From Folioceros fuciformis (lineage: Eukaryota), in assembly GCA_049999805.1 (NCBI GenBank), contig JBNGIO010005405.1, forward strand, positions 1-64,000: DNA of 64,000 nt, given 5' to 3'. Positions 19,119 through 64,000 of the stretch are shown piece after piece. How positions within the stretch are numbered: position 1 is the first letter of the stretch; each line of letters begins with the position of its first letter. A program made the translations under genes and the position numbers. The notes under the pieces are model-generated. The model was not told the DNA's origin. It did no database searches and saw only the letters and a list, made by a program, of their open reading frames with translations.

Positions 19119-22100
19119 ATGGAGGCGTGCGGGGCGAGGCGGGCGCTGCTCCCGGCGGCAATGTGGCCGCTGCAGGTGTCGGGGGCCGGGCTGAGGATGG
19201 TGNNNNNNNNNNNNNNNNNNNNNNNNNNNNNNNNNNNNNNNNNNNNNNNNNNNNNNNNNNNNNNNNNNNNNNNNNNNNNNNNNNNNNNNNNNNNNNNNNN
19301 NNNNNNNNNNNNNNNNNNNNNNNNNNNNNNNNNNNNNNNNNNNNNNNNNNNNNNNNNNNNNNNNNNNNNNNNNNNNNNNNNNNNNNNNNNNNNNNNNNNN
19401 NNNNNNNNNNNNNNNNNNNNNNNNNNNNNNNNNNNNNNNNNNNNNNNNNNNNNNNNNNNNNNNNNNNNNNNNNNNNNNNNNNNNNNNNNNNNNNNNNNNN
19501 NNNNNNNNNNNNNNNNNNNNNNNNNNNNNNNNNNNNNNNNNNNNNNNNNNNNNNNNNNNNNNNNNNNNNNNNNNNNNNNNNNNNNNNNNNNNNNNNNNNN
19601 NNGAGTGGGTCGTGTGGAGCAGCCGCTAGTATCGTCTGCAGTCGTGAATTTGGCAACCGAGACGGCGCTCGTGCGGGTTAACTCCGATGTCGAGCAGCCC
19701 AGTGCCTTGGACAGTGCGAAGAGGGAGCTGGCCGAGTTCCTCGCAAAGCATCTTACCAGCTGTGGGTTCAAGTCCACCGTCAGAGGTGAGGAGTAAGCGG
19801 GAGTGGGTTTTGTGGCATGGTGTAGCTGCTGGGCACCAGGGACGGTAGGTAGGATGCATTCCAGTGTGAGAGAGTGCGAGGGGGAGGGAAAGCCCGGCTC
19901 GTACTCCGGAGTGATAACACCCTTTTTCTCTCAGCCTTGCCCTTGCCCTTGCCCTTGCCCTAGTACTGAACTGCTGTATGCATGGGTGGATTGCAGAAGG
20001 AGTGTTTTGAAGGAAGAATCCAAGTGCAGGTCCTGCTCCCACTTCCAAGCTTCCCTTCCTATTCATTTGGAGGGGTTTCTCTTGAGATCTCAGCTTGCCT
20101 TGGCATACCGTGTCCACGGCCTTGCTTGTGGGAGCTTTTACCTCACGATGAGTTCCTAGTCCTAGCTCTTAGTTGCTGCTGTTGGGACTCCTGGACAAGA
20201 GTCTGATACAAACCCCAAAATTTTCATTCACCTGGAGAGTAGTGCCGTATATCTTGGCTGACCAAATGCGTAAGCATAGTCAGGAATTTTCAGTGAAATT
20301 TTCACTTTTGTGTACAAGAAACAAGGATTGATCAATCAATGCTGCAAGTTAATAGTTCGTGACTGTTTCTCTGCATTCATCCTTTGTCAGGACTTTTTCA
20401 TGGCTACTCCGTGAAGTGCAGACATGTCTCAACACTTGCCTTGTCAAATGTGTTTTTCATTGTCAATTTGTGAGGTGCTGGACATTTTCGTATTTTGAGG
20501 TGCCTGCTGATTGTATGAGCCGAAAGTCCTTGGTAGTCCTCCTGATAGCTGATGGTGGGCTTGGTGTTTTTCTCTTGACAGGCCAAGGGGTTGTGGGGGG
20601 TACTGTTACTCCAGCAGCTTTGCGGAAGCGAGAGGAGCGGCTTGCCCGCTTGAAAGATAGTGGTATATTCAGAATGACCTTTGATAGAGTTTGACAAGGC
20701 TCTAGCTGTTGTTCAAGACATACTTTACCGTCATCCAGGCAGTCCCTTTGTGGCACAATGCGCCTGAGATGTCGGATGTCTTGTGTGCCCTCCTGGAAGT
20801 CAACTGATGGTGTGTGACTTATCATGCAGGCAGAAGACTGGCTACAGCTTGGACTCTTGCCGCAGCTTGCCTTGTCGGCCACACTGCTCATTTCTTTGCT
20901 CACAGCGCTCCAGCCTGGCTTCATGTTCTCCACTCTACTGGCTTCCATGCCGCACTATCCCTCGCTGCGCTTGCTGGGCCCGGCCGGAAGTTGCTTACCG
21001 ATGGGTGGAAAAGCTTTTGGAAAAAATCGCCAAATATGAATACGTTGGTAGGCTTGGGAGCAGTTTCTTCCTTCGCTGTCAGCTCAGCAGCTCTTCTCCT
21101 CCCACATCTGGTAAGGCTCTTCTACGTGGACTCTGTGTTAGACGTACATATGCCGAGATAAGAGAGTGACAACTCCTAAGAGAGTGGCTTCCGGTTCAGG
21201 GTTGGCAAGCTTTTTTTGAGGAGCCAGTAATGCTGCTAGCTTTTGTGCTGCTGGGAAGGGCTGTTGAAGAGAGGGCAAAGTTGAAGGCGACCAGTGACAT
21301 GGCAGCACTTCTGAACTTGCTACCTTCAAACGCCCGCCTTGTGATGGGATTGAAACCTGATGGTCATCCCTCAGTCGAAGAAGTCCCTTGCAGTGCACTT
21401 TCAGTCGGAGATGCTGTCCTTGTTCTACCTGGGGTATTTCTTATCTCTAAACAGAGGTCATTCTAGGATGTGACAACCTGCAGCCCGTCTGCAGGACGAG
21501 CTCATGATGCGCCATTGGACCAGCCTAAGCTCATGACAGTAAGATGTGCCTGTGCTAGGACCGCATTCCGGTTGATGGAGTAGTTCGACAAGGACGGAGC
21601 ACTGTAGACGAGTCCAGTCTGACTGGTGAACCCTTGCCGGTGTTGAAACAAGCAGGAGTACGTGGTGCCAAACCTATCTCTCTAGCCTTGTGTCAGGCCT
21701 GCCATTGCTCGGTGGGGAGGCCTAATGTCACAACATCTGGCAGGATGAAGTAAGTGCAGGGACTGTGAACTACAACGGAGCACTGACGGTAGAAACTGTA
21801 AGAGCAGGCGGTGAGTCCGTTATGGGAGACATTGTACGGATGGTGGAAGATGCCCAGACCAGAGAAGCTCCGGTGCAACGTTTGGCTGATCAGGTTGGTT
21901 GACAGCACACGGCGCATTTCAATTGCACCTTGAGTGTAGCGTTCAATAGCCGTGAAAGCTGATGTCTGATGTGTTGCAGGTGGCAGGACGGTTCTGTTAT
22001 GGGGTTATGGCCCTCTCTGCTGCAACTTTTGGGTTTTGGAGCTTGCTTGGGCCTCAGGTATTCCCAGCCGTGGTGCAGCAAAGCCAGGCCTTTCTGCTAG

Positions 22101-35862: not shown

Positions 35863-36145
35863 TCCATCAAACCTACATCCACAATTTTGTCCATGAAATT
35901 GGAATCCTTCGTCAAACCTACATCCACAAATTTGCAATGAAATCGGAATCTTCCATCAAACCTACATCCACAAATTAGCAGATGAAATCGGANNNNNNNN
36001 NNGAATCTTCCATCAAACCTACATCCACAAATTAGCAGATGAAATCGGAGGGTCACCATTTAACCTACATGCACAAAGTAGCAGATGAAATCGGAGGGTC
36101 ACCATTTAACCTACATCCACGAATTAGCAGATGAAATTGGAGGGC
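35863..36145. repeat. ~45-bp tandem repeat, at least 6 copies (CCATCAAACCTACATCCACAAATTAGCAGATGAAATCGGA...), with an internal gap
   Basis: Directly visible; Ns at 35993-36002. Confidence 0.85.
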
Positions 36146-39102: not shown

Positions 39103-42100
39103 CTATGGTGTGTGGTCTCCAACGCCGCCCGCCAGAAAGGTGTGCACTTCCTCGTCATGCGCTATCCAGCTCCAGCCTGGCTCTTTCCACGCACTTTCCG
39201 TTTTCCTGCGCTTGTCCACAACCCGGGCGTCCTCTAGCAGGCCCGCATCAGCATACATCTGTGACATCAACACGTATGCTGCAGCATTTGTGGGTTGCAG
39301 ACGCACTGCCAAATCGAAGACTTGTTCTCCCAGAGATATATTACTGTGCTTCCTGCAGGAGCCCAGCACAGACATCAACATGGCAAGAGTGGGCTGCATT
39401 GGCATACTTGACAAGAGCTCTTCTACCATTGTGAAGCGTCCTGCACGACCCAGGAGATCTATCATACAGGCATAGTGCTCAGCTCTGGGAGCTATCCCGT
39501 GATGTATGTCCATGGATTTAAAGCACTGCACACCTTCCCACACCAGGCCAGCATGACTGCAGGCAGAGAGAAGCGAAAGGAACGTGACTTCATTCGGCTG
39601 GATGCCTGCCAGCACCATTTTTTCGTAGCACAGGAGAGCGTCCTGACCCATCCCGTGCTGACCATATGCTGCAAGAATTGCATTCCACGTCACCTCATTC
39701 TTTGTGGGCAGACTTTCAAACACTCTGCACGCATCGTCTAAACTCCCACATTTGGCATACATGTTCACCAGGCAGCTGCCCACAACGACATCCACTTCCA
39801 AACCTCTCGCTCGAACCTGAGCATGAAGCTTATGCCCCGTGTGCAATGCTCCGACGCTAGCACATGCCTTCAGGAGACAGGCGAATGTAACATGATCAGC
39901 GGCCGTGATTCCACGGTGACGCATCACGGCATAGAGATCAAGGGCCTCCTGCCCCAGCCCGTGCACGACATATCCCGTCAGCATCACATTCCAGGTCAGG
40001 ATGTCTCTGGTGTCCAGAATGTCGAACACTTTCCGGGCATCATCCAAGCACCCACATTTCGCATACATGTCCACCAGACAGCTCCCGACACCTGAATTAG
40101 CTTCCAAGCCCATTCCCATAACCTGCGCGTGGAGTTGCTTTCCCTGCTCCAAGGCTCCGATGCTGGCACACACTTTCAGAAGGCAACTGAACGATGCGTG
40201 ATCAGCAGGAGTGACACTTTCCTGCTGCATGCTTGCATAAAGATTGAGAGCTTCTTGTACTAGTCCATGCTCGGCGTAGCCCATCAGCATGGCAGTCCAG
40301 GACACCACAGTTTTTGTCTCCAACTTGTTGAACACACTTTGAGCATCACCGAGTTGACCGCATTTTGCATACATGTAAACAAGACAACTCCCGACAAATG
40401 AATCGTTATCAAGGCCACGTTCCTGAAGCTGCACATGAAGCTGCTTACCCTGGTCCAAGGCTCCGATATTAGCACTTGCTTTCAGGAGGCACACAAATGT
40501 CACATGATCAGCTAGAGCCATGCCCTCCTGCTGCGTGCTTGCATACAGAGACAGCGCTTCTTGGCTTAGACCGTGCTCTTCGTACGCAGTGAGCATGGCA
40601 GTCCACGTCACCACATCTCTTGTAGCTGACTCGTCAAACACCCGGCGGGCATCCTCTAAGCTCCCACACTTTGCATACATGTCCACCAGGCAGCTGGCAA
40701 TGACCACGTCGGCTTGCAGGCCCATCTCCTGAACCTGGTCATGTAGCTGCCTTCCTTTCTCCAATGCCCCGATACTTTTACATGCTTTCAAAAGGCACAC
40801 AAAAGTTATGTGATCTGCTAAAGTAACGCCTTCTTGTTGCATCGATGAATAGAGAGACAGGGCTTCTTCACCTAGCCCACGCTCAGCATATCCTGCGAGC
40901 ATCACGTTCCAAGTCACCACATTTCTTCTAGTCATGTTGTCAAAGGCAGCCCGGGCCTCATTTAAGCTTCCACATTTTGCATACATATCTATGAGGCAGC
41001 TCCCCACCATCACCTCAGTTCCGAGCCCTGCTTCCTGTATTTCTGAATGAAGCTGCCTTCCCCGGTGTAGTGCTCCACTGCTAGCACACGCTTTGAGCAG
41101 GCACAAAAACGTGACATGGTCAGGGAGAGTGATTCCCTCCTCTTGCATATTTGCATAAAGAGCAAGAGCTTCTTGCCCACGCCCGCCGTGAGCATACCCT
41201 CCAAGCAGCGCATTCCATGTGACCACATTTCTCGAGTCCAACTTGTCAAAGACCATGCGGGCATCCTCCAACCTCCTACATCTTGCATACATTTCCACCA
41301 GGCAGCTCCCTATAAATACATCAGACTCCAGCACACTACTCAGGATATCGGAGTGGACCTGCCTGCCTGACGTCAGATCTTCAGCACTGGCACAAGCCTT
41401 CAGTGCTGCCACAAAGAGATGATTATCTGCCAACATCTGGGATGAGTGTCGCATACTCAAATAGATCTCGATTGCCTGCCTGGCCTGCCCATTATCAACA
41501 TGTGCCTCAATTATGGAGGACCACGAGTGAGCATTGGGAGCAGCAACTCCATTAAAGACCTGCAATGCATCCTCCAGCCTCCCATAGGCAGCGTACATGC
41601 GGATGACGTGATTAGCCAAGAATCTGCTGCCCACATACCCACTTCTGACAATGAGGGAATGCACACCCCTGCCAGCGCCAACATCTTTGTGTGCAATGCA
41701 CCTCTTGATGACCTGACGGAAGAAAGCTGCGGACACATACCACCCTGGCCGCACTAGAACGTCCAGAACCTCAACGGCCTCCCTCAGATGTCCCTCTTCA
41801 CGTGATTTATCTCCCTTGCCGTGCACTGTACCCATAACGGGAACTTGGGGGCTGCCTGCATTGTGTCGTGATCAAAACACCAGCCCTAAACAGTGTACTC
41901 ACATGAGCATTATCACCACAAGTGCTCAAGTTACCTCATCTGACATGTACCGGCATCACTGCGCAGAGCTAGCCAGCGACTTCTCCCGCCATTGTATCTG
42001 CCCAGGTGCCTCCGCTGCCAACAGACAAAACATGAGCATCTGTCAAAGAATGCATCATGCAGTGATTTACAACATCAGGAGGTGCCACAAGGTCAGCAGA

Positions 42101-45907: not shown

Positions 45908-47908
45908 GTAATTTGCCGCATTGGCAATGTGCAGTGGGTGCTGTGTTCGTAGACTTTCTTGTATTGACACGAGAGGAGCAGGCGAGGCTGACAGTGCACG
46001 GACTGATGGAGCAGGATTTCGCTGACAAGCTTATCCCCAGCGAGCTATTGGGCTCTGAACAACCAAGGGTGTTGGCACCCCTAACAGGCCTGTTGCGACA
46101 GCTAGGTAGGGTTGCGTTCTCGTGTCTTGGTTCTCTCCTCCATCCCGCCCTGCTTGATTATTTATGCCATGGATGTGAGACCCTGGTGGGTGCTCCACAT
46201 ATGAGTCTGCAAAATGCACGGCAGTTTGACAAGTGCAGCAACTGGAGCTGGATGTGCTAAGAACTAGGTCCCTTGTCCTACATTTGGCCTTCCATGCCTG
46301 TTCACTGGGCATGCAAGTCCAGGGAAGACGAACTCAGTGGAGCTGTCCGTTCATTGCATTAAAGGACACTGCCGTCGAGAGTCGTTTGGTGATTCCCCGG
46401 AGAGTTAACTAGTCCATAGTAATGGACATGCCCCTCCTCCAGACGGTCAACCCCCTCTCGATACTCTACGAAAGCTTTCCTTTTTTTTTGGTACGTGGAC
46501 AAAACTCCCCACCGATTCCCAGATCCGAATTCAGCATCCGATACGAACGCGTCGATCTGATGAGCAGATCGTTCTCTATCGAGCCCATGACAATGCCGGT
46601 TGATTCCGTGACTCTTGATTGCCAGTGAGTCGTCCAACAACCGCGACATTTGCTTTCCTGGTGCGAGTCTTCTAAATCTGCTCCAGGCGACGTACGTCAG
46701 TCTCCGCCGTGGTGCCTCAAACCAGTTGGTGTCCGGAGCTGGTTCCTAGACAATCTATTCCACCATTGTTTAGAGCTTGTTCCCAGAAAAAATGTACCAC
46801 AATACAGCCATCCTAAGATGAGTCTTGAGCGATCACATTGCACAGAACGCCGTCCAACTCACCTGTGTCTTAACCGATTGTCGGCAACCGCTGGACGTGC
46901 ACATGTATGTTCCTCAGTTTGGGAATTCAGCACTTGGAGCCTGGCAGTTCAATATTTTCCTTGTGTGTGCCAGTTCAATCTGAGAAATAAGTTGTCCCAA
47001 ATTTCACCGAATGCATGGAACTGCAAGATTTCTTCCATAGCGTGCACGCAGAGAAGTCTGATTTTCTCTTTGCATTTTTTGGTAGGACTTTAGGTTTGTA
47101 GCAATGATTTGTGAAGTGGGGGAAGAAAGGTGATGTCTCCACCCACAAGAGCAGCGAAGGGTGATCCCCTTCCATGTTTACAGAAACTTGAAAGAAATTT
47201 GATGTTCCATGCCCATGGTTTCACTTGTTTCACTAGTTTGTGGGCAACTTTATGTAGACTAGGTTGTCTCTCTAGGGTCCAGGTCCAGGGTGCATGGACT
47301 GGAGGCTGCGTCCCCTGCATCTCTGGACTGACTGACCACGTTCGGAAAAGCTTGAAAAGCTGCCCACTGGAAGTTCTATCTCCAATTTTGAGAAGGCTAG
47401 AAGTAGCTGTCCACCAGCCTTCGCCTGGCCGGAATGCAAGGCAGCACCTTGCCCATGAAGTCGATGCTGACAAGCGCAGAGTCAGAGATCACGTTTGGGC
47501 TGGTCTCAAAGCCATGCCTCATCGTCCTCATGCCGCTGAGGCTCATGGTTTTTAGGTTGGCAGTAGCTACATCCACAAGACTATCTTCACTGACCATGTT
47601 TCGTTTTTTCGTCACTTGGTTCCACGTGTGGGCCACCGAATCCATGACACACCGAATTCAGTACAGTCGTTCATTGCAGATGGCGGCGAATTGAGTGTTC
47701 TATACATGAATAATTTGTTACAATGGAACATTCCCTAATGATATGAGCCTCCCTCCACATATGGTGGGTGGTAGAGGTATGGGACGACATCACGAGTGCC
47801 TGACACAGCTTGGCTTGCAGCAAGCATGTATCTGACCCCTCTTACAATAGTGCAGCCTAGTCTAATGTAGCTAAGCAGCTGTCAACGTTGAGATCTTCTT
47901 CGCCACTG

Positions 47909-50848
47909 TCATGGCGATTCATCTGCTGGTGAAAATAGTGACACAGATTGCCATTGGTGTCGACTACTGACCTTGGATGCTTTCAGGTGTTGGTCGATCT
48001 TGTTCCCAATCCCAGGATCTCTTGCTAGCATCTCCATCAGACCGCCACCGTGCACCCGACCTTCCGGAAGAGAAAGCGAATTCATGTTGAAGGCTCCATC
48101 ATCGGAGGTTCTCGAGGTGAGGACCTCACCAAGCTTACCACGGCTCGAGGGGGTTATGTCAGCAGCGCCCAAGTTTTGCATCGACAAGGGAACGAGTACC
48201 TTCGGCGGAATAAGTGATCCCAATAATGTAGTCTGGGACGGAGGATAACTGCCTGAGCTGACACGGTGGAGAGTTGCTGAGGGAGTGACCAATACTCCAG
48301 TCATGGAACTGGTTCCTTGAGGAAGGGGCCTGGAGGAAGCACCGAAAGCTGATCCCACCACTGACAACCCACTGTCCAAACCAGACTCGGTAGCTCCTGC
48401 TGCTGGTGGAGCCCATGAGTTCGCGTTGGCAGTTTCCATTCGTGACAGGTCCTCTTCACTAGAATCGATGCCAGACTCACCGAAGTCACGCATTTCAGAA
48501 TCTCCACTTGCAGTTTCTGTGAGGCCTGTTGTGCTTCCTGATGGATCTGCTGTTCGTTTGGTCAGTGTGGGTCCTGGCACAAGCCCTCGAAACAGGCCAG
48601 GTGAGAGTCCAGGGCCAATGACAGAACCCGCATGAACCCTAGTGTCATGCACAAGCCCACTATGAGCAGCACAAAGGCCGGTCTTCCCCCGGGCAAATCT
48701 CTCACAAGGCTCGGGTTTCAACGTACCCCCAGCCAAAGACACACCATCACATGCGTATGCAAAAAATGGCGATCCCTCTACACCCCACTGACACCGCTTG
48801 CCTCCACCGTGAGCCTTGCAGAAATCTGTACTTCCCTGGGCACTCTTCCCACAAGCTTCGAACTTGCATCGCTTTCCTCCTCCATGTCGAACACAGTGAT
48901 CCGTCCTCCCCCGAGCACTTTTCGAGCAACCCTCAACAGCACAGCGCTTACCACCACCATGGGCAACACAGAAGGCTGTCCCCCCGTGCACACTCTTGCT
49001 GCATATTCCTCCCCCTTCATGCATGCATCTCTTGCCGCCTCCGTGGCCCTTGCAAAGAGGCGTGCTCCCCTCGGCGCCTTTATTACAACCTGCAATCATA
49101 CATCGTTTCCCTCCCCCATGGGCTTTGCAAAACATTGTACTTCCTTGAGCACCTTTGGTGCAACCTTGAAATTGGCATCTTCTGCCACCTCCATGCGAAA
49201 TGCAAAGCCCAGAATATCCCTCTGCACTCTTTGTGCACCCTTCAGTCTGGCATCTCTTTCCTCCACCATGCCTAATGCACAGCCCGGAACGGCCTCTGGC
49301 AGCTTTAGAGCAGCCCTCAGAGCTGCACCGGCGTCCCCCCCCGTGCCCTATGCAGTAATCTGTCTTGCCTTCGGCACTCTTCGTGCACCCCAGCTTTTGA
49401 CACCTTCGCCCGCCACCATGTGCCTTACAATACACAGTGCGCCCTTCCGCTCCCTTGTTACACCCTTGTTTCTCACATCGGCGACCTCCTCCATGAGCTA
49501 TGCACAAGCCAGAGGCACCTCGAGCCCCTTTCCCACACCCACGGAACTTGCACACTTTGGACACCTTCTCAGACGGTGGTACAGATGCTGAAGTGGTGGA
49601 CGTCGTGCAGCTGGTTGATGTTCTCATGCTCATCGGGAGCTCCTGCTCCACCCTATTCACATGACACTCCGGCACAGGCTCAGCAGGCCTGGGAACTTTC
49701 GGCAAATGTTCGTGTACGTGACTGCAAGGGGGCGCCGGATGAGGACTTCCCATCAGCAAAGACGGCATGAAACCACCACTGGTCCTCCATCGAGCGGACG
49801 AAGAACCCTCGTCCAACACAGGCACAGGACCACCAGATGCTCTGACAATTTCTCGGTTATCCACCGCAATTTCGCGCAATCCCAGCTCTAAGAGCATGCC
49901 AGACTCGCAGTGAGCCTTCCTCATGCTCGAAAGCTTTTCTCCTTCCCTATTCTGGCCAGAAAGATTCCCCATGGACCCAAGCTCCAAAATAAAACCCGGA
50001 CTGTTCTCCATGTGCCTGGACAGGCCACCTCGTCTAGTCCCCTCAAATGACCGCCCACCTCTGCTTACAGATTCACCAAGATTTCCCCTTTGACCTAACT
50101 GCAACTGTACACCCGAATTCAAGTTGTGGTCTTCGTCAGGATGATTGTAAACGGATCCAGAATCCCTCGACTCTCTGGACTGGCTGCAGTCCAGATGACT
50201 AAACAAAAGCCCGTCACATCCAGACCCGATGGACAGAAACCCATCAGACGCTCTGGACCTCACAGACGAACCCAAGAACGAGCCTTGACTGTCCGGACTC
50301 TCCGAGATAGTGTCCATCTGACCCAACGACAGAGTGGTGGGAGAATCAATATCAAAGCAGAAATTGCCCCCCGAAAAACTAGCAGCACCTTGGCTGGGCC
50401 GGATGTCGATAGGGGAGCTCCCTTGTCCCAGGACAAGAGAGCTGCCCAGATCCTCCTTCAAACCACTCCCCTTTGCACCCCTCTTCCTCTTCCCCCCGGA
50501 GGAGCTGGCTTGGCCACGCCCATCCCTGGGAGCTTCAGTTGGACAATCAATCTTCGGGCCCCAAGACCAACATCCAGCAGAATAGATATTACCACCATCC
50601 ATCTCCCTGGGAGTGTCCGTCCCGATGGACAAAGTCGTGGTGATGGCAGATTGGGAAGAATGCACGTACTGGAGGTCGGGATCATTCAACCTGGTCACGA
50701 GCTGCTCGCTTCTTCCATCCCCGCAGAAGGGAAAGTTGCTTCTCTGCTGCACGTTCTGCACTCTCCCATCTCCTGCATGCAGAAAACTAAAAGCCTGCGA
50801 GGATCCTGCCACTCTGCTGTCCCCATAGGATTCGCGCCGCCCAGTCAT
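47909..50848 (-). CDS. WRKY19-like Cys/His zinc-finger repeat protein (At5g64550/At1g64140-like), single coding exon, 979 aa
   Basis: Ten C-x4-C-x-K-x-A-x-G-x4-C-x2-HGGG modules plus a degenerate eleventh, L(E/Q/S)LG motifs, LDEGSSSA, and a C-terminal PEGRVHGGGL. Confidence 0.9.
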   Translation of the reverse strand: MTGRRESYGDSRVAGSSQAFSFLHAGDGRVQNVQQRSNFPFCGDGRSEQLVTRLNDPDLQYVHSSQSAITTTLSIGTDTPREMDGGNIYSAGCWSWGPKIDCPTEAPRDGRGQASSSGGKRKRGAKGSGLKEDLGSSLVLGQGSSPIDIRPSQGAASFSGGNFCFDIDSPTTLSLGQMDTISESPDSQGSFLGSSVRSRASDGFLSIGSGCDGLLFSHLDCSQSRESRDSGSVYNHPDEDHNLNSGVQLQLGQRGNLGESVSRGGRSFEGTRRGGLSRHMENSPGFILELGSMGNLSGQNREGEKLSSMRKAHCESGMLLELGLREIAVDNREIVRASGGPVPVLDEGSSSARWRTSGGFMPSLLMGSPHPAPPCSHVHEHLPKVPRPAEPVPECHVNRVEQELPMSMRTSTSCTTSTTSASVPPSEKVSKVCKFRGCGKGARGASGLCIAHGGGRRCEKQGCNKGAEGRTVYCKAHGGGRRCQKLGCTKSAEGKTDYCIGHGGGRRCSSEGCSKAARGRSGLCIRHGGGKRCQTEGCTKSAEGYSGLCISHGGGRRCQFQGCTKGAQGSTMFCKAHGGGKRCMIAGCNKGAEGSTPLCKGHGGGKRCMHEGGGICSKSVHGGTAFCVAHGGGKRCAVEGCSKSARGRTDHCVRHGGGKRCKFEACGKSAQGSTDFCKAHGGGKRCQWGVEGSPFFAYACDGVSLAGGTLKPEPCERFARGKTGLCAAHSGLVHDTRVHAGSVIGPGLSPGLFRGLVPGPTLTKRTADPSGSTTGLTETASGDSEMRDFGESGIDSSEEDLSRMETANANSWAPPAAGATESGLDSGLSVVGSAFGASSRPLPQGTSSMTGVLVTPSATLHRVSSGSYPPSQTTLLGSLIPPKVLVPLSMQNLGAADITPSSRGKLGEVLTSRTSDDGAFNMNSLSLPEGRVHGGGLMEMLARDPGIGNKIDQHLKASKVSSRHQWQSVSLFSPADESP

Positions 50849-50903
50849 GTTTCCTCACGCCACCCGCCCACCCCTCCGCCCACGTCCACAACAAGCTCTG
50901 CAA

Positions 50904-51303
50904 NNNNNNNNNNNNNNNNNNNNNNNNNNNNNNNNNNNNNNNNNNNNNNNNNNNNNNNNNNNNNNNNNNNNNNNNNNNNNNNNNNNNNNNNNNNNNNNNN
51001 NNNNNNNNNNNNNNNNNNNNNNNNNNNNNNNNNNNNNNNNNNNNNNNNNNNNNNNNNNNNNNNNNNNNNNNNNNNNNNNNNNNNNNNNNNNNNNNNNNNN
51101 NNNNNNNNNNNNNNNNNNNNNNNNNNNNNNNNNNNNNNNNNNNNNNNNNNNNNNNNNNNNNNNNNNNNNNNNNNNNNNNNNNNNNNNNNNNNNNNNNNNN
51201 NNNNNNNNNNNNNNNNNNNNNNNNNNNNNNNNNNNNNNNNNNNNNNNNNNNNNNNNNNNNNNNNNNNNNNNNNNNNNNNNNNNNNNNNNNNNNNNNNNNN
51301 NNN
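50904..51303. other. Assembly gap (400 N) upstream of the zinc-finger gene
   Basis: Run of Ns. Confidence 1.
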
Positions 51304-54108: not shown

Positions 54109-57100
54109 TTAGTCTCGGAGCCTTGATTCGTTTCCATGCTTGGGAGGCAGAAAGCATCACTTTGTTTCTACAAAACAAAGTGGTCGATACTGGGAAAGCA
54201 AAGCTGGGCTGGGGTACCTGACTGCGCATGAAGGAGGATCTTTCAACCACCTCACGCTTTTGAAGATCCAGCTCCCTTGTGGTCATCTTCAGGTGCTGTC
54301 TAGATCTGGCGAGCTGAGACCTGAGCAGCACCAAACTGACAACTAATATTGCCAGGATTCCTATCAGGATGCCTGGATTCCCAATCCACTCAAGCACGAT
54401 CCACACAATACTGGGTGCTCTCTGCAACACAATACCGCCCGCAATGAGAACGTGGCAGCCAATCTGGCAATGACGGATAGAGTTTGTTTGGCCCAACCTG
54501 AATGTATGTTGATAACACCGAATACATAGTTCTCTCATCGCGCACAGGACCACAAAAGCTTGTAGTGCTTTGCACCAAAAGAAGAGACACTGGGACACTG
54601 CACAAAATTAAGGTGAGACATAGCAAGCCATAGGTGACGTTGGATGTTCGAGACGCACTATATCGCTTCTCCAGGGCAGAACATGTTTTTGTGAGGGATA
54701 GCTGTGGACATCAGCACGAGCCAAGGGTCAAGTTCTGGCTATCTTCTTCACGAACCAGGAACCAGGAGTCTGCTTTTACCTTCATGCAGTAGAAGGTGAC
54801 GAGGTTGACTATCACTGCCAAAGGTGCTGCGGCAGGAGCAAAACAGGAGCCGATCCAGATGAGGGCTTCAAGGTACAGAACGTCAAGAGCCATGTTCTCT
54901 ACTGACATTTGCCTCTTAGACTGTCACAACAGACCTAGTCAGCTCTGCAGCAGAGATTTGCAACTACAACATGCATCATCAAAGCCAAAGAGCGAACCTT
55001 GAACACCCATAGAGTAATGAATCCTGTGAGAAGCTCCAGGCCATTGTTGATAAGGGTCGTGGTAATGATAAGCCTGATGAGCTGTGCCCCAACTGTGTTT
55101 TCCACACAGGTCGGTACGCACCTCAAGTACTGCAAATCCAGAAAGGGTCTCAGAAGCTCCTTTCAGCATACCGTCATCGAGCTTGCATGTCAAGTGACAG
55201 TTCGCTCTGTTCAATGCAAGATGGCTGCAATCGATGTACCTGGTCCACAGTGCAAACACCCCACGTTCCAAGGTTCACATTTGTGCAGCAGATGTATCCA
55301 TCACCACACGAGGACGTTGATACAGAGCAATCTGCATATTCACGTTCACCGTGACGTTCACGTCGAGCACCGTTGAGCATCATAAAGAGCCTGAATTGAG
55401 AGCATCGAATGGTCACAGTTTCGTTGAATCTTTCGGACAAACAAGGTTGCTTTCGACATTCAAACTGATTCAGAAAATGGCAAACCTTGTGATAAGAGTA
55501 GAGAGGTTGACTGCTCTCAACAAGTAGAGCTTCACCAGGAGAACCCGATCGTGCAAAGCTGGATTCCAGTTCTCTATTGCCACAATAAGACGAGTGATCA
55601 TAGGTCCTACTACATTCAAGGCCGCTAAAAGTAGAGGTTGTCCAAATCCCGTCCCTGAGGAGAAGTACTATTGTCATGCCATTGCAGACCCCAAACGTGA
55701 AAACTCTTATGTGACGGTGCTCAAAACAATGCATAAGTTGCATCTATTTCACACAACTAGCCATTCTGAAACACTGGAGAGGGAAGGTCCAAAATGCAAA
55801 ACCAATTTTCTTGTTGATTTTGCCAGCATATTTCACCAGGAAAACTATAGCCACCACACTAGCACCCAGGGACAGTGGCCACAAGACAAAGGCTGCAAAA
55901 TAGCCCTGCCATCAACATGGGAATTTAAGCATGCATAATGCAAAACAAGATGCTCGAAGGGTTACGATTCACGGGCAGCAGCTTTCGAATTTAAACGAGG
56001 CAGACTGAAGGTGGCAAACTTACAAGACGGTCCCTCCATGTGACTCCAGTTGTCGCAGCTTTGCTTGAAATATCTGCTATCAGCTCCTGCAGTTCTGTCC
56101 GAATGCTCCGCCTCAGCTTTGCTGCTGCCTGTCATCCCATTTAGCAGTTGAATCCATCTGAGTTTGTGAAAAATGACGTCCCTGCAAGGAGGATCAAAGG
56201 AACTCCATCGAAGAATCAGCTGCAAAAGGCTCAGCTCTCACATCATGAGAAGTCACGTGGAAGTCCCAAGACGTAAACACCAGGGCTGAACAAGGAAACA
56301 CACTACTCTTATATGGCATCGCAACATCACCACTGCCCATTATCCTTGATGCTATCCTGCAAGCGTATGCAGCAAAGGGGAAACATGCCACCATGAGAGC
56401 CAGGCCTGCAGGTTATTTCCGAAGTCAAACGAGCGGCTGAACTGACAGCCGTCCAGACTGTGCCTGCAATCCCATGAAAGCAGCGGGCAAAATATATGAA
56501 AGCATGGAGTATCAAGAGGTTCACCTAACAAGTAGAGCGATCAAGCTGACAAGGAACATAATGGCGATTGCAGTAGGATATGCCCAATCCACACGATATG
56601 CACCAGGCTGATCAGCTCGGCTGTAGAAGTAACCTCCGAAATACACCCACGTCCTCTCTAAAGCATCACCCTTCACCATACCTTCGAGTGAGTTATCATA
56701 AGTAACACTGACATAATGCAAGTATAGATGTGATTCTGGTGAACGTATAACAGGCCAGAGGACCCCCGATTGGAGCTTCACATGTGAATACTTGAGATGC
56801 AGACCCTACAATCTAGGAACCAAATGCCTCGGAGAAATCATTTCAGGGTGGTGGAAAAACATGTCCATCCCAGTATAGCGCGGAAATTGATCTGTGATAA
56901 AGCAATATCCCAATGCTATGCAGGCCCGCTTCGACAAGTTGGATAGCTAGTGGGACACTTTGACCATCAAACAAACTGTGCAAGGTTCAGCAAAAGAAAA
57001 CGGCTGACGCAAGTGCAATCAACCTGTACAACTGCCTTGAAACCCGGCTTCGTGAACAACTTCCATGAGTAACCGGGCGGAGGCTTGACCCAGAAAGGGA

Positions 57101-58628
57101 TTATCAACATTCCAACCCATATTGCAGCGATCATCACGTTTAGAAAGAGCACCCATCGTAGGAAAGCAAACGCCAGCATCACGGCTGACCCAAAGGCTCC
57201 TTCGATTGCTTTGAGAGATTCCAACCAGGGGCTCCAATGAAATTTCCATCTTTTGGTCTGGAGATGCAGTGTGTCAGGGAAAACACTAGTAAATGAACGG
57301 AGCAAAGGGGATAAATCGTCACAGTTCGATGGGGATGAACACACCCCCTGAGCAGCTTTCTTAAGTCGTCGCTTGTATGCCCAGCGCTGGAAGCAGGAGC
57401 ATCTGCCGAAGGTGGACGCTTTGGGATGGCCATCCTTTTCAATCAATTCGATTCTTTCTTTAGCCCTTTTCACAGTATCTGAGACCTGCCCACGTACAGG
57501 AATGCATTGTTAGCCCCAAATCGACATCATCGTAGGCCTCCACCCTGTCAATTTCACAACATCAAGGACCACCAAACTTATGGGTGAAAAGACCTCTACC
57601 CCATAATGTTCCAGTCTAAGGAGTGAGCTGCAGCAGTCAGAAGTAAAAACGCTTAAAAATTTGCCATTAATTTTTGTTCGAAAAGGAAGCTGTAGCAGTC
57701 AGGAAGATTGGATTTGAACCATTTTCCGATGCATGTCCTGCTCGGCAGCATCCATGTTCTCCTGTTCGACATTTCGTTGCGATCCTTCTCTGAAAGGAGC
57801 TTCTGCGCTCCCTCCTTTCCCGAATCCCTTTTGGTGCACAACCGAAGTCTTCTTGGATGACGATGAGATGGTATCTCTACTAAACCTGCTTGCAGGTAGA
57901 CGACTGTCAGGGTTCCCGGCTGGAATATCTGCTGCCCCACCCTGGCTGCTGGGGGAGACCTCAGGAGGCTGATCAATCACAATGGCTGTTTCAGCAGCCG
58001 CTTCTGACACGGCATACTGCGCAGAATTTGGGAGGGAAATCGGCGATGCTGAAGGACCTGTTAAGAGTGAAGGGGCCAGGCTAACATGAGAGCCAGCTGG
58101 CATTCCTTCAGGACTGTCGAGCAAAGCATCTTGTGCACTTCCAGCAGCACCTGTGGCAGGCATCTCCTCCCTGTTGCCAACATGCATGATCCTTTCTCGG
58201 ATTGGTTGCTCAGATTGTGAGGAGAGGCCAGTCATGGAATTCTTGCGATACCGCGGCCTTGGAGACTTGGAGTCATCTGGATACCCCAAAGGTGCTATCC
58301 TGAAATCGTGGGCTGATGGTGCAGACTCACGCACCTCCGGACGAGGAGGAATGAACTGAGACCTAAACTGGCTCTGCTCAGCACGAGTAGAATCCAACTC
58401 AAGAAAGGTTGCTGGATGGGAGGATAGAACACTACGACGAGGTGGACTGGCATCATGAGAGAAAATGGACATAGGCTCGATCGTGTCCGCCTTCGGTACC
58501 ACTGCAGGGTCCAAGGGTGGAAGCTTGCCTCTAGGTTGAGCCATGTTCTCAGGCTTGATATCCTGTGCGCGTAAGGGGACCCATTTCTGAGGGTGGAATA
58601 TCCTCTTGCCTCCAGATGACGAGGCCAT
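54109..58628 (-). CDS. Transmembrane channel-like (TMC family) protein, multi-exon
   Basis: Collinear TMC motifs: W...LKAIEGAFGSAVMLAFAFLRWVLFLN; YFGGY; YPTA; VFTSWDF; IRTELQELI; IENWNP; CVENTVGAQLIRL; SVENMALDVLYLEALIWIGSCFAP...VTFY; FCGP. Long disordered N-terminal exon. Start and last exon are uncertain. Confidence 0.85.
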
Positions 58629-59313
58629 GAAGGTCAGATTGGCGAGCCAGGCAGACACGGCTCGTCTACATCAAGGCAGCTGGGAAAGAGAGGCAGAAAG
58701 AGATGAAATCTTCGCTGTCCATGCCGTTTCTTTACCAAAAGGCCCTGCCAGCAATTGATGCATTGTGTCCAGGCATGGTGCCTAACACAAGAGGAGACCA
58801 ATTGCACGCATATGCATTGAAACAATCGCCACCAGAGCTTCCATCACCTAGCTCGCACCCACAAACCCTACAAAATAGCAGCTGCCATCCAGAACAAACT
58901 GGGACATGCTCCCAATTCACCTGTGGCCCAGTACAAGGAACCAGCAGATGCAGTGGGCAAAACACACAAAGAAGCAGCCATGGGCAGAATTATCGTATGC
59001 ACAGGGAGGCGAACTACACCGCAGCAACTTTATCGCCTCGATCACCAGACTCCATCATGCTCATTAATCGCCCCCACATTTTTTCTTCAATCTGAAGTCG
59101 CCACACCTGACAGTTGGCTTTTGTCTCTCCAGTTTCATGTGACAATTGCTACAACCGTTTTGCCCGGTAAAAGCCATTTTCGCCTAGTATTCATAAGACC
59201 TGTGCTGGAAATGACACGCATCATCCCTCTCTGTTCATCCTGGTTTGGCGACACCAGCGGAACCTTCACAATGACACCGTGGAGTTGAACCCTACGAATG
59301 CCTACTCAGGATT

Positions 59314-62300
59314 TCATGTGCAGCCCGTTAAACCAGAAGCGAGCTCCTGCAATTTTGCATATAGCTCCTTCCTCTCTGGGTGGTTGTGGTCTTCCACCAA
59401 AAAGGAGTGAACCTGATTGTTCAGCTCAATCCAGGTCCTCCCAGGTGTTTTTTTCACTTTGGCAGCTACCATCCTCCTCCTCAGTTCTGCCTCCTCTTCC
59501 CACATGCCTGCTGCTATGTACATTTCTGACAACAGCACGTAAGCAGCTGCATTTGCAGGTTCGAGCTTCACAATATTCTCAAAGCATTGTCTCCCCAAGT
59601 CCGTGTTGCCCTGAGTTTTGCATGCTCCAAGCAGGGACATCCACAGTGTGACATCAGGCTGCACAGGCAATTCATACAACAACGCCTCCGCCTCAGACAA
59701 GTGGCCAGCACGGCCTAGAAGGTCAACCAAGCACGTGTAGTGCTTAATGTCTGGACTTATCCCAAATCTTTGGGACATTGTTTTGAACACACCGTGGCCC
59801 TCAGTCCACAAGCCAGCATGACTGCAGGCAGATAGAATGCAGGCGATGGTGACATCATTTGGCTTCAAGCCTTCTTGTTGCATCCGCTCAAACAACACAA
59901 GCGCCTCCTGAGCACGCCCATGCTGAGCAAGTCCTGCTATCATCACAGTCCAAGAGACGACATCTTTCTGTGATAAGCTGTCAAACACAAGAACTGCTTC
60001 CTCTAGGCTGCCACATTTGGCATACATGTCAATAAGGGTGTTTCCGATGACTCCATCCAGCTTCAGCATACATTTCTTCAGCTCTGAGTGAAATTGTCTG
60101 CCCTGATTGAGAGCAGCTACGCTGCCACATGCCTTCAGGATGCTCAGAAAAGCTATCTCGTTTGGCTGGACACCCTCGGATTGCATTTGCTGAAATAATT
60201 GAAAGGCTCTACTCCCATGTCCGCGCTGAGCATATCCAGCGACCAGTGTCGTCCAAAGCACCAGATCCCGATGTGGCAGCTGGTCAAACACTCTCTGAGC
60301 ATCATCCAGGCTTCCATATTTTGCATACATGTCAACAAGCACGCTCCCAACAGCAAGGTCCGACTTGTACTCAGTCTTGGCAAGCAGGCTATGAACCTCC
60401 TTCCCCTGATTCAACGCTCCTGAGTTGCTGCAGGCTTTGAGAACGTTTATAAATGTCACCTTATTGGGACGTACACCAGACTCTAGCATGTGGTGAAACC
60501 ACTGCAGGGATTCAAAACCTCGTCCATGTTGGTTGTACCCCCCAATCAAAGAAGTCCATGATACTACGTCTTTGTTAGGCATACTTAAAAAGACTTTGAG
60601 TGCTTCCTCCAAACTCCCGCATTTGAAATACATGTCAACCAGCGCATTTCCTACGACGTTATCCAGTTGGTAGCCCTTCCTGCTTAGCTGGGTGTGGACC
60701 TGCTTTCCCTCATCTAAGACCCCCAGGGTGGCACAAGCTTTGATGATACTCACAAATGTGACCTTATTAGGCTCCAGTCCCTTTTCTTGCATTTCTCTGA
60801 ACATTCTGAGACTCTCCCAACCCTGCCCGTGCTGGGCGTAACCTGCAATCATTGTGGTCCATGAAACGACAGATTTTTTCTGCATCTTGTCAAAAGTTTC
60901 TCTCGCTTCAATCAAGCTTTCACACTTGGCATACATATTAACAAGACTGTTTGCGACTACAACGTCAGTGTCTAGCCCAGCTTGTATGATGTGTCTGTGG
61001 ATCACCCTACCCTCTGCCAGAGCTGCTGTGCCTGTGCAAGCTCTAAGGACAGCCGCATAAACATTTGAATTTGGCCTAAAGTCTGAAAGTCGCATATCCA
61101 TATACAATTGTATAGCCTTCTTGCCTTCACCGTGGTAGACATGTGCTGCGATGATTGCCAGCCAAGTGTATGCATCTCGCTCTTCCATCCTACAGAATGT
61201 GACATTTGCCTCTGAAAGACTTCCACATCTAGAAAAAAGGTGGATCAGCTTATTTCCCGCTTGAACACCAAAACCGTTATCCAATTCCAGCAATAATGAA
61301 CGTATCCGCCTACCATTGAGCATATCTCTCTGTTGTACGCACATGTTTAACAGATGATGTAAGCTCTCTGTGGACAGTCCGCGGCCCTGAACTTTTGACA
61401 TGATAGCTGCATCAAGTGCACTACTTAGGCTTTCCTTCTCACTTTTTCTCCTAACAACATCGTCCATGCTCACATCACCGAGCACCCTGCATACAAGAGG
61501 ACTAAGGAATTAGCAATCAGTAAGAGAGCCTCTTCGCACATTGACTTGCCATTCAGGTCGTTTAAACCAGTGCTACATGTCTCAACTAGAAACCTACCCT
61601 AGGCTGTTTTGCATTTGGCTCATCAATAAATCCAGCTTTTCGTAGATTTGCTTTCTTTGTGGGTGATCTACATCGTTGACTGAAAAGACGTGCACTTCAT
61701 CTCTAACCTCAATCCAAGTTTTGCCAGGTACTTTCCTCACTCCTGCACTCCTCAACTTCTTTCTCACCTCTGCTTCATCTTCCCACCTGCCAACTGCAGC
61801 ATAGAGGTTCGACATCAGGACATATGCAGCCAGGTTTGAAGGCTCTAACTTCACTAAACATTCAAAAGCATGCCTCCCTAGCTCCAAGTTTCCGTACTTT
61901 TGACATGCGCCAAGTAGAGATGTCCAGACTACGGCCTCAGGTTCCATCGGCATTCTTTCAATGAGCTCTTTCGCTTCATTGATCTGGCCAGCACGTCCTA
62001 AAAGGTCAACCATGCAGGCATAATGGCGCATTCCTGGAACGATCCCAAATTTGTCGGACATTGAGCAGAACAGGCGATAACCCTCATCTAACAGCCCAGC
62101 ATGGCTGCAGGCGGAAAGAACACAAACCAGAGTGACATCATCCGGCTTCAGTCCCTCTCTTAACATTTGCTGGAAGAGTTGAATGGCCTTTCGACCATTC
62201 CCATGCTGAGCATACCATCCAATGGCCGAAGTCCAGGACACTAGATCCTTGTCTGGCATTTTGGCAAAAACGTTCCAAGCATCATCTGGGCTGCCACATT

Positions 62301-64000
62301 TGGCATACATATCAAGAAGCGTGCTCCTGACAACTGCATCAGATTCAAGCCCTCTTGCCTCAAGTAAGGCATGAACCCTCTTCCCCAAGTTCAGTGCCCC
62401 AACCGTGCCACAAGCTTTCAAAAGGTTCAGGAAGGTCACTTTGTCAGGCTGCAGACCCTCTTCTTCCATTCTTACGAAGAGTTTAATAGCATCTTGGCCA
62501 TGCCCAGAACTCCCATAACCTCCTATCATGGTAGTCCAAGACACCACGTCCCTGTTTTCCAGCCTGTCAAAGACCTGACCTGCCTCTTTCAGGGCGCCAC
62601 ATTTCAGATACATGTCAAGGAGGGCATTTCCTACAACAATTTCACCATTTACTCCCTTTTCCACTATCAGAGAATGAAACTGCTTGCCCTTTTCTAGATC
62701 TTGTGCCGCAGCACAAGCGTTCAAGAGGCCCACGAATGTGATACTGTCTGGTTCAAAACCATGCTCCTGCATCTGACAAAACATTTGCAAGGCTTCGCGA
62801 CCACGACCATGGTGAGCAAAGCCTGCAATCATAGCATTCCAGGTAACCAGATTTTTTTCCCGGACATTGTCAAACACTCTACGTGCCTCTTCTAGGCTCC
62901 CACATTTGATGTACATATCAATGACCGAGTTCATCACGAAAACAGTCATCTCAGACGGCGTCTGTTTGATGTGGTTGTGAATCATTCTACCCTCTGTCAA
63001 AGCTCCTACGCATGCACATGCCTTGAGAGCTGCAGCATAAACATAGGCATTAGGTTTAAGGTTGGACTGTCTCATCTCCAGGTACAACTTGATGCCTTCA
63101 TCGCTCTGCCCATGATTGATATGTGTGAAAATCATGGCCTGCCAGGAGTATGTATCTGGTTCACGGACAGCACGGAATGCTTGATTCGCATCCGCCAAGC
63201 AGTTGCATGAGTCAAACATTCGAATGATGTTTCTGTTCAGAAAACTTGAGTTGAGACCCCTTCGCGTGACAAGGGCATGCAACAACCTTCCAACTTCCAG
63301 GTCCTTTCTCTGTATGCACCCTTGCACGATGCTACACAGTACGTGTGTTGGAATCTCAGCACCTTGCTGGTCTATCCACTGGAGAGCACAACATGCCTCT
63401 TTTAGCCGCCCCTCTATACACAGCCTACCAACAACTTCAATATGCCCAGTCAATCTGCGTTCTTTCCCAGACCTGTGAAACATGGAAGCTCAGAGTTGAC
63501 AATGCACTTACAATACAGTCAATGGACATATCATATTTCCACAGTACCCGTTTAGAACATATACCTGGCTGGATCTATTGAGAGGCTGACGCCGGGCTTC
63601 ACTAAGAATTGAGCCCTTTCTTTTAGACCTGATGTCTTTTTCAAAGCCGCTAACCTCGGCTTCACCCAGGAGGGATTCCACCAGCTGTCCGTCCATAAAG
63701 TGTCCTTCGTCACACTATGAACAAAATCTGGGTAGCTCACATCTGTCTGCAACAAACAGCAGAAAATTCAGACCATGAGGGGAAGAGATGACCACTTCGC
63801 GTAATAGGAACCTTAGATAATTGCAGACCTTTCTCCACCTGTGGTCCCACCACAGCGAAGGATTGGTGAAAAAATTTCTCCACAGATCCTCTGTTGCAAT
63901 CGACTGAGCTGCAGGCCATGACTCACGGCTTGTATCCGCTCTGACGTGGGCTGCGGTGCTGACAGTGAAACACGACCAAACCAATGGAGTAATGCCAAGT
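59314..64000 (-). CDS. PDF-motif + tandem double PLS-E+ PPR protein (exons >64000-63829, 63746-63565, 63472-61598, 61486-59314); 5' end outside the window
   Basis: Three GT-AG introns (82, 92, 111 nt) all keep frame. They join LWRNFFTNPSLWWDHRWRK|TDVSYPDFVHSVTKDTLW...PSWV to the 629-aa and then the 723-aa PPR ORF, each ending E1-E2-PG box. The PPR calls are certain; the fusion is inferred from splice signals. Confidence 0.8.

Follow-up and report, generated by a model that had tools for sequence, protein, structure and literature searches.

PLS-class PPR proteins of the E+/E2 subclass, such as CRR4, CLB19 and SLO2 of Arabidopsis, are organelle editing specificity factors that have no DYW domain and rely on a DYW protein in trans. 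PLS-class PPR proteins are, to our knowledge, taken to work with a single array and a single C-terminal end on one target or on a few that resemble each other. Exitrons, i.e., exonic introns, and read-through conjoined genes are established concepts as well. The PDF motif of the OSB family is described in passages of PMC6963530 and PMC13393729; the definition used here is a stretch of about 50 residues with a conserved Pro-Asp-Phe.

The locus considered here lies at the end of the window, the whole 64,000-nt stretch of Folioceros fuciformis DNA that was analyzed (contig JBNGIO010005405.1), and contains two minus-strand PLS-type PPR frames of 629 and 717 codons, assigned to one gene. It resembles E+/E2 PPR genes in the order P1-L1-S1, P2-L2-S2, E1, E2 and a PG-box tail ending where the deaminase core would begin, but differs from them in having two units in one frame, several introns, and an N-terminal PDF motif. 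This motif is shared with the OSB family; here, however, it is followed by PPR arrays, and the OB-fold that stands ahead of the motif in OSB proteins is not visible within the window. As in exitrons, a 104-nt GT..AG segment within a coding exon is taken out of the RNA; as 104 nt is not divisible by three, excising the segment truncates the protein, unlike the trimming caused by an exitron. As in conjoined genes, a stop codon between tandem units is spliced out. Taken as a whole, the locus is probably one multi-exon nuclear land-plant gene for a PDF motif and two PLS-E+ arrays, in which splicing decides whether the second array is translated.

Exon structure and the N-terminal PDF motif

The features of the locus, in window positions, are as follows.

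63829..63999, minus strand: exon a, truncated at the window end, with an uninterrupted frame and donor AAG|GTCTGC; its last ~20 codons are the first half of the PDF motif
63747..63828, minus strand: intron, 82 nt, GT..AG, phase 0; its removal rebuilds an ungapped PDF motif
63565..63746, minus strand: exon b, carrying the second, Pro-Asp-Phe half of the PDF motif and a linker, in frame with exons a and c
63473..63564, minus strand: intron, 92 nt, GT..AG, phase 2; holds the ATG (63483-63481) of the 629-aa ORF
61598..63472, minus strand: exon c, array 1 (Pfam, hand segmentation, 303-nt periodic repeats)
63483..61594, minus strand: 629-aa ORF of the ORF listing (array 1)
61794..61897, minus strand: E1/E2 intron ('exitron'), 104 nt, AAA|GTACGG...TGCAG|TT, placed by contig arithmetic
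61487..61597, minus strand: intron B, 111 nt, phase 2, AGG|GTAGGT...TGCAG|GG; holds the stop codon TAG of array 1 (61596-61594)
59314..61486, minus strand: exon d, array 2, with stop TGA at 59316-59314 and an internal ATG at 61467
61467..59314, minus strand: 717-aa ORF of the ORF listing (array 2)

Joined, exons a-d form an uninterrupted frame of 1466 codons with one stop at its end, as computed over the window; this length is a lower bound, as the gene runs past the window end at 64000, and its true N-terminus lies beyond the window, array 1 not being the gene start. The ATG at 63483, just 5' of the acceptor of the upstream intron, falls inside that intron, exon c beginning at 63472, and the 629-aa ORF therefore falls short of a complete gene; the first ATG of an ORF can thus lie within an intron.

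Contigs of four runs (X1, X2, X3 and X7) were compared with the window. The RNA label of the runs is itself a guess; as they skip GT..AG segments at 12 introns of neighboring genes, the runs behave as cDNA, a status judged by such joints only, and their contigs report the presence of splice forms, not isoform levels. In one X3 contig (record 15) the aligned piece ends at 63470, with 769 more letters of the record beyond it. A contig of the relatives extends 2399 letters past its aligned piece, of which about 2 kb would fall outside the window. Mean depths of X3 and X7 in the bin 63344-64000, the one place where read depth or uncovered parts were used as evidence, are 13.7 and 34, i.e., the contig depth multiplied by about 480/657 and 435/657, respectively, which weakly matches cover of exons a-c alone. 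The 82-nt intron is not represented by a direct RNA joint among the 15 joints listed of 163.

A phmmer search with exon a yielded 21 matches at E<=0.001, each with the motif repeated 2-10 times; an SSB domain was found in four of the 19 matches scanned, and one match is named OSB3 by its source. In pairwise comparisons with P0256, a 1371-aa protein predicted from a public RNA contig, exon a scored E 7e-8 and exon b scored E 5e-9 to 4e-8 against its three PDF motifs, and the motif formed by exons a and b is collinear with those found in P0243 and P0256. The two exons are therefore the halves of an OSB-type PDF motif, which the gene carries but which does not file it as an OSB gene. Pfam gave no match for exon a and no meaningful match for exon b, the best E-value of the N-terminal exons against PDB sequences was 0.84, and their best score against the atlas, 0.77, was uninformative. 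P0256 has its three PDF motifs directly before a PLS array, as here, and is collinear with exons a-c, hence the N-terminal architecture recurs. It is 33-34% identical to arrays 2 and 1 and differs from the present gene in that its only array is long and has one P2-L2-S2, a truncated E and one Pfam E motif; neither a second PLS-E unit nor an SSB-like OB-fold was seen in its sequence.

Two PLS arrays with E1-E2 and PG-box ends

By hand segmentation, array 1 consists of L-S, three P1-L1-S1 triplets, P2-L2-S2, E1, E2 and a 45-aa PG-box/E+ tail, and array 2 of L-S, four P1-L1-S1 triplets, P2-L2-S2, E1, E2 and a 44-aa tail of the same kind, the PG-box string being visible in both tails; the 303-nt periodicity (three copies in array 1 and four in array 2) has the same counts. 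The P-L-S triplets of ~35/35/31 residues place the arrays in the PLS class, and P2-L2-S2, E1 and E2 at the C-terminal ends agree with the E+/E2 subclass. Both ORFs match Pfam PPR families at E 1e-63 to 1e-86. The E_motif (PF20431, cut-off 27.3) was detected with 70.0 bits in array 1 (residues 530-592 of the 629-aa ORF) and 49.5 bits in array 2 (residues 621-681 of the 717-aa ORF), the Eplus_motif (PF20430) scored 23.0 and 23.3 bits, slightly below its cut-off of 24, and the Pfam search gave no match to DYW_deaminase (PF14432) at E<=0.01 in either ORF. Pfam and hand segmentation thus bear out the sequence-only reading that each unit is a full PLS array with E1, E2 and PG box and without DYW; its further claim of two complete stand-alone modules does not hold, as array 1 is preceded by PDF-motif exons and the N-terminus is outside the window. 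The arrays share 45% identity across 578 aa and would be expected to read different sequences. From family knowledge, the product may be an E+-type specificity factor that binds organelle RNA and is served by a DYW deaminase in trans.

The same reading had taken one array and one C-terminal end as the norm. Doubles are on record among public gene models: two E motifs were found in four of the five long matches scanned. As in the fusion, P0003, P0017 and P0031 (Cryptomeria japonica RefSeq) and P0030 (Cannabis sativa) have two E motifs each; P0017 and P0031 also have two DYW domains, unlike the units described here. These models (1679-1898 aa, with an internal DYW and 36-41% identity to array 1) are unvalidated, whereas the join in the present gene has RNA-contig support and a stop inside an intron. 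If it is a true gene, 'fused tandem PPR' gene models would not always be annotation errors.

No orthologous protein was found in any database searched. Neither ORF occurs as an exact match in the protein collection, no protein relative exceeds 45% identity among the matches listed (120 of 334 and of 6497), and none of 71 candidates for residues 1-110 of array 2 reached E<=1e-5. Among metagenome contigs, the best 80 of 569 relatives are at most 46% identical; a crude regex scan of these 80 loci, which detected the window pair as its positive control, returned 60 PLS ORFs in 60 loci, with no same-strand PLS ORF pair within 600 nt and no ORF with two S2 or PG boxes.

Splicing between the arrays

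Intron B begins one base before the stop codon of array 1, so that its splicing drops the stop and array 2 is read in frame. The donor side reads ...CTA GG|GTAGGT, with TAG at 61596-61594, and the acceptor side ...CTGATTGCTAATTCC...TTGTATGCAG|G GTG CTC; codon GG|G, split by the intron, leads into the second frame, whose ATG (61467) follows six codons later. If the intron is kept, the frame of array 1 hits TAG at once, and three more stops follow. The donor hexamer, acceptor and length fit those of the 12 RNA-supported introns elsewhere in the window (76-120 nt, mostly TGCAG-ended), and GT..AG ends, local consensus, size and absence from RNA together characterize the segment as a spliceosomal intron.

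The only same-organism contig over the region, X1 record 4 (5912 nt, 0 mismatches over 5.4 kb), was placed on 57718-61485, covering array 2 unbroken, and on 61898-62856. Between these pieces, 197 letters of the record stand for 412 genomic bases, for which three canonical GT-AG solutions exist. The solution with skips of 104 and 111 nt has pyrimidine-rich acceptors, and its middle exon starts at 61793, which is also the arithmetical end of two contigs from related organisms, X3 record 14 and X7 record 20 (1670 letters, less 1484 aligned and 5 between, leave 181, spanning 61613 to 61793). Solutions of 125+90 nt and 162+53 nt were rejected, having purine-rich acceptors and fitting neither the joint of the relatives nor the contig end at 61793. 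Both skips in X1 record 4 rest on this arithmetic, which gave a unique canonical solution when applied to the neighboring gene. Contigs of the two related organisms (X3, X7) join both arrays in frame: in X3 the listed joint 61487->61613 with 5 letters between amounts to a net 120-nt skip, which preserves the reading frame between the arrays and shortens the linker by 9 nt relative to the window.

The absence of intron B, computed for X1 and read from a listed joint for X3, supports the 61597-61487 spacer as a real intron. The sequence-only reading had proposed a stop codon inside a spliceable intron that joins the arrays in frame, as well as an RNA check across 61598->61486; sequence and contigs agree with the former, and the contigs do skip the spacer. 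It is very improbable that the joints are assembly or alignment artefacts among PPR paralogues: many partial and back-joined alignments do occur among the PPR repeats, and conserved motifs near 60004 and 62127 coincide with contig breaks, but X1 record 4 is free of mismatches, both skips are canonical GT..AG of typical lengths, and there is no long flanking repeat, only 62-nt families at 66-81% identity.

Another explanation assumes two tandem PPR genes, array 1 with the PDF motif and array 2 translated from its own ATG, a chance donor at the first stop being spliced to an acceptor before the second ATG in a read-through chimera that is a by-product RNA. This ATG indeed stands only six codons past the acceptor, and X1 record 4, frame-broken upstream of array 2, continues into the next downstream gene, meaning that read-through (or overlap) between neighbors happens here. 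However, merely 126 nt separate the stop from the ATG, the first 32 residues of array 2 are acidic-rich and would be unlike a targeting peptide, the junction in relatives differs by 9 nt and is still in frame, contigs of X1, X3 and X7 cross the junction unbroken, and both PPR exons start in phase 2 at a comparable distance from the first alignable helix; we consider separate genes unlikely. The downstream gene had been guessed, from recall, to encode a channel-like membrane protein; this had no Pfam support and was dropped.

The frame break in X1 record 4 is due to the 104-nt intron (61897-61794), which this contig lacks as well. Its removal takes out the greater part of E1 and the beginning of E2 and causes a frameshift; a stop is reached 648 visible codons on, 177 nt ahead of the intron B junction, and array 2 is out of frame. 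This contig thus does not encode the fusion, and the complete fusion frame is present in no matched contig of the same organism or relatives. The 104-nt splice could be the normal one, the main product being a truncated PDF motif and PLS array without an E domain, and array 2 a 3' UTR of a decay-prone transcript. The fact that the only same-organism contig has this intron removed favors such a view, but the frame remains open through array 2 and through E1/E2 of array 1, and all six listed coding pieces of the two arrays (60002-61487 in array 2, 62127-63470 in array 1) align to three relatives with 0 gaps at ~10% difference, while pieces reaching non-coding sequence have 24 and 10 gaps. The end of the relatives' contigs at 61793 is a weak hint that both splice forms exist there. 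A truncated protein as the usual product is accordingly quite unlikely.

Under the favored single-gene reading, removal of intron B with retention of the 104-nt intron would yield the two-array protein, retention of intron B would yield the PDF motif with array 1 only, and removal of the 104-nt intron would shift the frame, so that the protein would end within E1 and lack array 2. The fusion protein could thus be made from spliced RNA. Two earlier proposals are affected: in the retention switch the protein does end after array 1, but the predicted product is PDF plus array 1 and not a plain single module; as for one protein from both modules, the junction is in frame, but the same-organism contig is frameshifted. 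A bivalent factor with two docking sites that bridges RNAs is conceivable. In its full form, a 'double-headed' organelle factor with the PDF motif and two PLS-E+ arrays, with its frame preserved in at least three related species and with two splicing choices controlling array 2, is a tentative and rather doubtful proposal. If true, two RNA sites, or RNA and single-stranded DNA, could be held together, and two docking ends could be offered to trans-acting deaminases.

Origin of the second array and published parallels

The second array may stem from the large PPR exon having been duplicated in tandem, or captured, along with the acceptor end of the preceding intron, after which a donor may have arisen at the stop of the first copy; this would show that large repeat-protein exons can duplicate and be joined by a stop codon turned splice donor. 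In each PPR exon, which starts in phase 2, the first alignable helix follows after 32-35 codons. Over their first 32 residues, exons c and d resemble each other no better than shuffles do (1452 of 2000 reach the score), and the two introns preceding the PPR exons show no similarity (372 of 1000 shuffles reach the score), so the duplication origin is weakly based.

In the literature texts listed, whose supplements may contain such cases, wording for a double PPR array, an internal E/DYW or a tandem PPR-DYW was not found, and 'PDF motif' occurs together with 'pentatricopeptide' in one general review only. The passages of PMC13386178 on domain fusions contain neither a double PLS unit nor PDF-PPR; they describe RRM-, MORF- and zinc-finger-PPR fusions. 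The wording 'two DYW domains' occurs in one paper, on maize EMP21. A conserved, transcribed gene with a PDF motif ahead of two full arrays of different predicted codes would test whether two arrays act in one molecule, a question also relevant to designer PPR editors.

Gene structure and the intron between the arrays

The locus most likely represents one gene that encodes a PDF motif and two PLS-E+ arrays, in which an intron (intron B) deletes the stop codon of the first array.

63999-63829, minus strand: exon a, in frame with array 1
63746-63565, minus strand: exon b, in frame with array 1
63472-61598, minus strand: exon c (array 1), its start placed by splice-site reading
63483..61594, minus strand: 629-aa ORF (ORF listing)
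61467..59314, minus strand: 717-aa ORF (ORF listing), within exon d (array 2, 61486-59314)
61897-61794, minus strand: 104-nt segment within E1/E2 of array 1, AAA/GTACGG...TGCAG/TT

The 629-aa ORF ends with ...CTA GG/GTAGGT, its TAG occupying 61596-61594, and the acceptor side, 111 nt past the donor, reads ...CTGATTGCTAATTCC...TTGTATGCAG/G GTG CTC. In the computed splice, excision of 61597-61487 yields GG+G (Gly) and Val-Leu-Gly-Asp-Val-Ser, followed by the Met of the second ORF, confirming the sequence-only reading that the first stop codon lies within a donor and that the second ORF is entered in frame. With intron B retained, the computed frame of array 1 runs into the TAG and three more stops; the proposal that retention gives a normal single-module protein thus holds for the stop, but not for the rest, as PDF-motif exons precede array 1. 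These two additional exons lie upstream of 63483 and are followed by GT..AG introns, 82 nt and 92 nt long; the ATG of the 629-aa ORF falls inside the 92-nt intron, so this ORF does not amount to a whole gene. Joined, exons a-d comprise 4401 nt with 1466 open codons and one stop.

A search of 1.84 billion representatives with exon a returned 21 matches at E<=0.001, the matched stretch being about 20-40 residues long and present in 2-10 copies per matching protein. [quoted passage not shown] In pairwise matches exon a corresponds to the first half and exon b to the second half of such motifs, and splicing a to b restores an ungapped motif by comparison with the printed motifs of the matches. Judged by sequence, exons a and b carry the 'PDF motif' of OSB proteins, which passages of PMC6963530 and also of PMC13393729 describe. 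This motif lies within 63565-63999 (minus strand), interrupted by the 82-nt intron and immediately 5' of the PPR array. The database protein P0256 (1371 aa, from an RNA contig) has three PDF motifs followed by one PLS array; it is collinear with exons a-c, with a single array versus two at the locus, and therefore the PDF-plus-PLS architecture recurs, though rarely.

Contig evidence for the join

Four sequencing runs were aligned: X1 comes from the same organism and shows 0 mismatches, whereas X2, X3 and X7 come from three related organisms and differ by about 10%. All four are presumed to be RNA from their label, and behave as cDNA, since they skip 12 GT..AG introns within neighbouring genes. 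Record 4 of X1, a 5912-nt contig, aligned at 57718-61485 and 61898-62856, with 197 letters replacing 412 genomic bases in between; its middle piece was inferred by arithmetic. Three canonical intron solutions fit this gap: 104 + 111, 125 + 90 and 162 + 53 nt. The first, which puts the middle exon at 61793-61598, was chosen because of its pyrimidine-rich acceptors (purine-rich in the other two), its donor at the stop codon and the exon start at 61793. X3 record 14 and X7 record 20 end at 61793, coinciding with that start (by arithmetic, 1670 letters = 1484 on 60004-61487 + 5 between + 181 from 61613). As a control, the same enumeration on the next gene gave a single canonical solution.

The X3 joint 61487->61613, which has five letters in between, skips a net 120 nt; hence the arrays are joined in frame in that relative, the linker there lacking 9 nt relative to the window. 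The join across 61598/61486 expected from the sequence-only reading shows up as the skip in X1 record 4 (by arithmetic), and in the relative as this in-frame joint. An artefact was considered as a rival; the gene structure is real and transcribed.

Loss of the 104-nt segment is computed to shift the frame, with a stop after 648 visible codons, 177 nt ahead of the intron B splice joint, and array 2 out of frame. As the segment is removed in X1 record 4, the only same-organism contig does not encode the fusion. Two further rival explanations are that the locus yields mostly truncated protein, and that read-through makes a chimera from two separate genes. Both arrays appear constrained as coding, since all six listed pieces confined to the arrays have 0 gaps versus 24 and 10 gaps in pieces reaching non-coding sequence. 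Under the preferred one-gene reading, splicing would give a two-array protein, a one-array protein if intron B is kept, or a protein truncated in E1 if the 104-nt intron is removed; both the two-array protein and a bivalent mode of action are putative. Two relatives, from two studies, have contigs ending at 61793, a weak hint that both splice forms exist there; contigs carry no information on isoform levels.

Backward joints and irregular skips within the PPR repeats of the relatives' contigs (X3 and X7, 59995-62867; e.g., 62844->59995, 60303->60009, and 59832->60310 with TA..AG ends) are most likely partial paralogue alignments at the 88% threshold.

Domain make-up, relatives and origin

Both ORFs match PPR families in Pfam (E-values about 1e-30 to 1e-86). 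With a cut-off of 27.3 bits, E_motif scored 70.0 and 49.5; Eplus_motif reached 23.0 and 23.3 bits, slightly below its cut-off of 24, and no Pfam match to the DYW deaminase was found in either. Motif naming and the 5th/last-residue code follow the PPR literature. By hand segmentation, array 1 consists of L-S, three P1-L1-S1 triplets, P2-L2-S2, E1, E2 and a 45-residue PG-box tail; array 2 differs in having four triplets and a 44-residue tail. Each module is thus, as first described, a PLS array with an E1-E2-PG box and without DYW, and either array taken alone is a PLS unit of ordinary E+/E2 type. The two arrays share 45% identity, and their predicted codes, from the same segmentation, are unlike.

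Two E motifs were found in four of the five long matches scanned (predicted proteins from public annotation), two of them also having two DYW domains. These unvalidated gene models of 1679-1898 aa, P0003, P0017, P0031 (Cryptomeria japonica) and P0030 (Cannabis sativa), are either real double-unit PPR genes or fused tandem-gene models. No orthologue was present among the matches listed from protein and contig collections, and the 60 PLS ORFs from 80 plant-like metagenome loci (the best 80 of 569 relatives) included none with a close partner on the same strand. Literature searches of main texts turned up no report of either a double PLS unit or a PDF-PPR architecture.

Both PPR exons begin in phase 2, 35 and 32 codons 5' of the first alignable helix, and terminate at an identical point of the E+ tail (hand segmentation). 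Shared phase, spacing and end point suggest, though weakly, because exon starts and introns resemble each other no more than shuffles do, that the pair of arrays may have arisen by tandem duplication or capture of the entire PPR exon along with the acceptor of its upstream intron.

Neighbouring features

X1 record 4 runs unbroken from array 2 via its stop and a 686-nt spacer into the next gene (56524-59313, minus strand), and X2 record 7 likewise bridges 58108-60028, reflecting either read-through or overlapping neighbour transcripts.

Next gene, minus strand: ATG at 58628; 303-codon first exon; exon 57485-57345; piece 57257-56524

Its first exon (303 codons) has no Pfam match. A third PLS-type PPR frame (39103-41871, minus strand; 922 codons, E motif 37 bits, PG-box and S2 strings) is solitary, 17.4 kb away from the pair. 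An open frame of 981 codons at 47909-50854 (minus strand) contains 11 WRKY19-type zinc-finger repeats (PF24906, 235 bits) and is spanned without introns by X1 record 2 (47683-50903). The N runs at 2386-2395, 19203-19602, 35993-36002 and 50904-51303 (820 in all) are probably assembly gaps, the last adjoining the end of contig cover of the zinc-finger gene at 50903.
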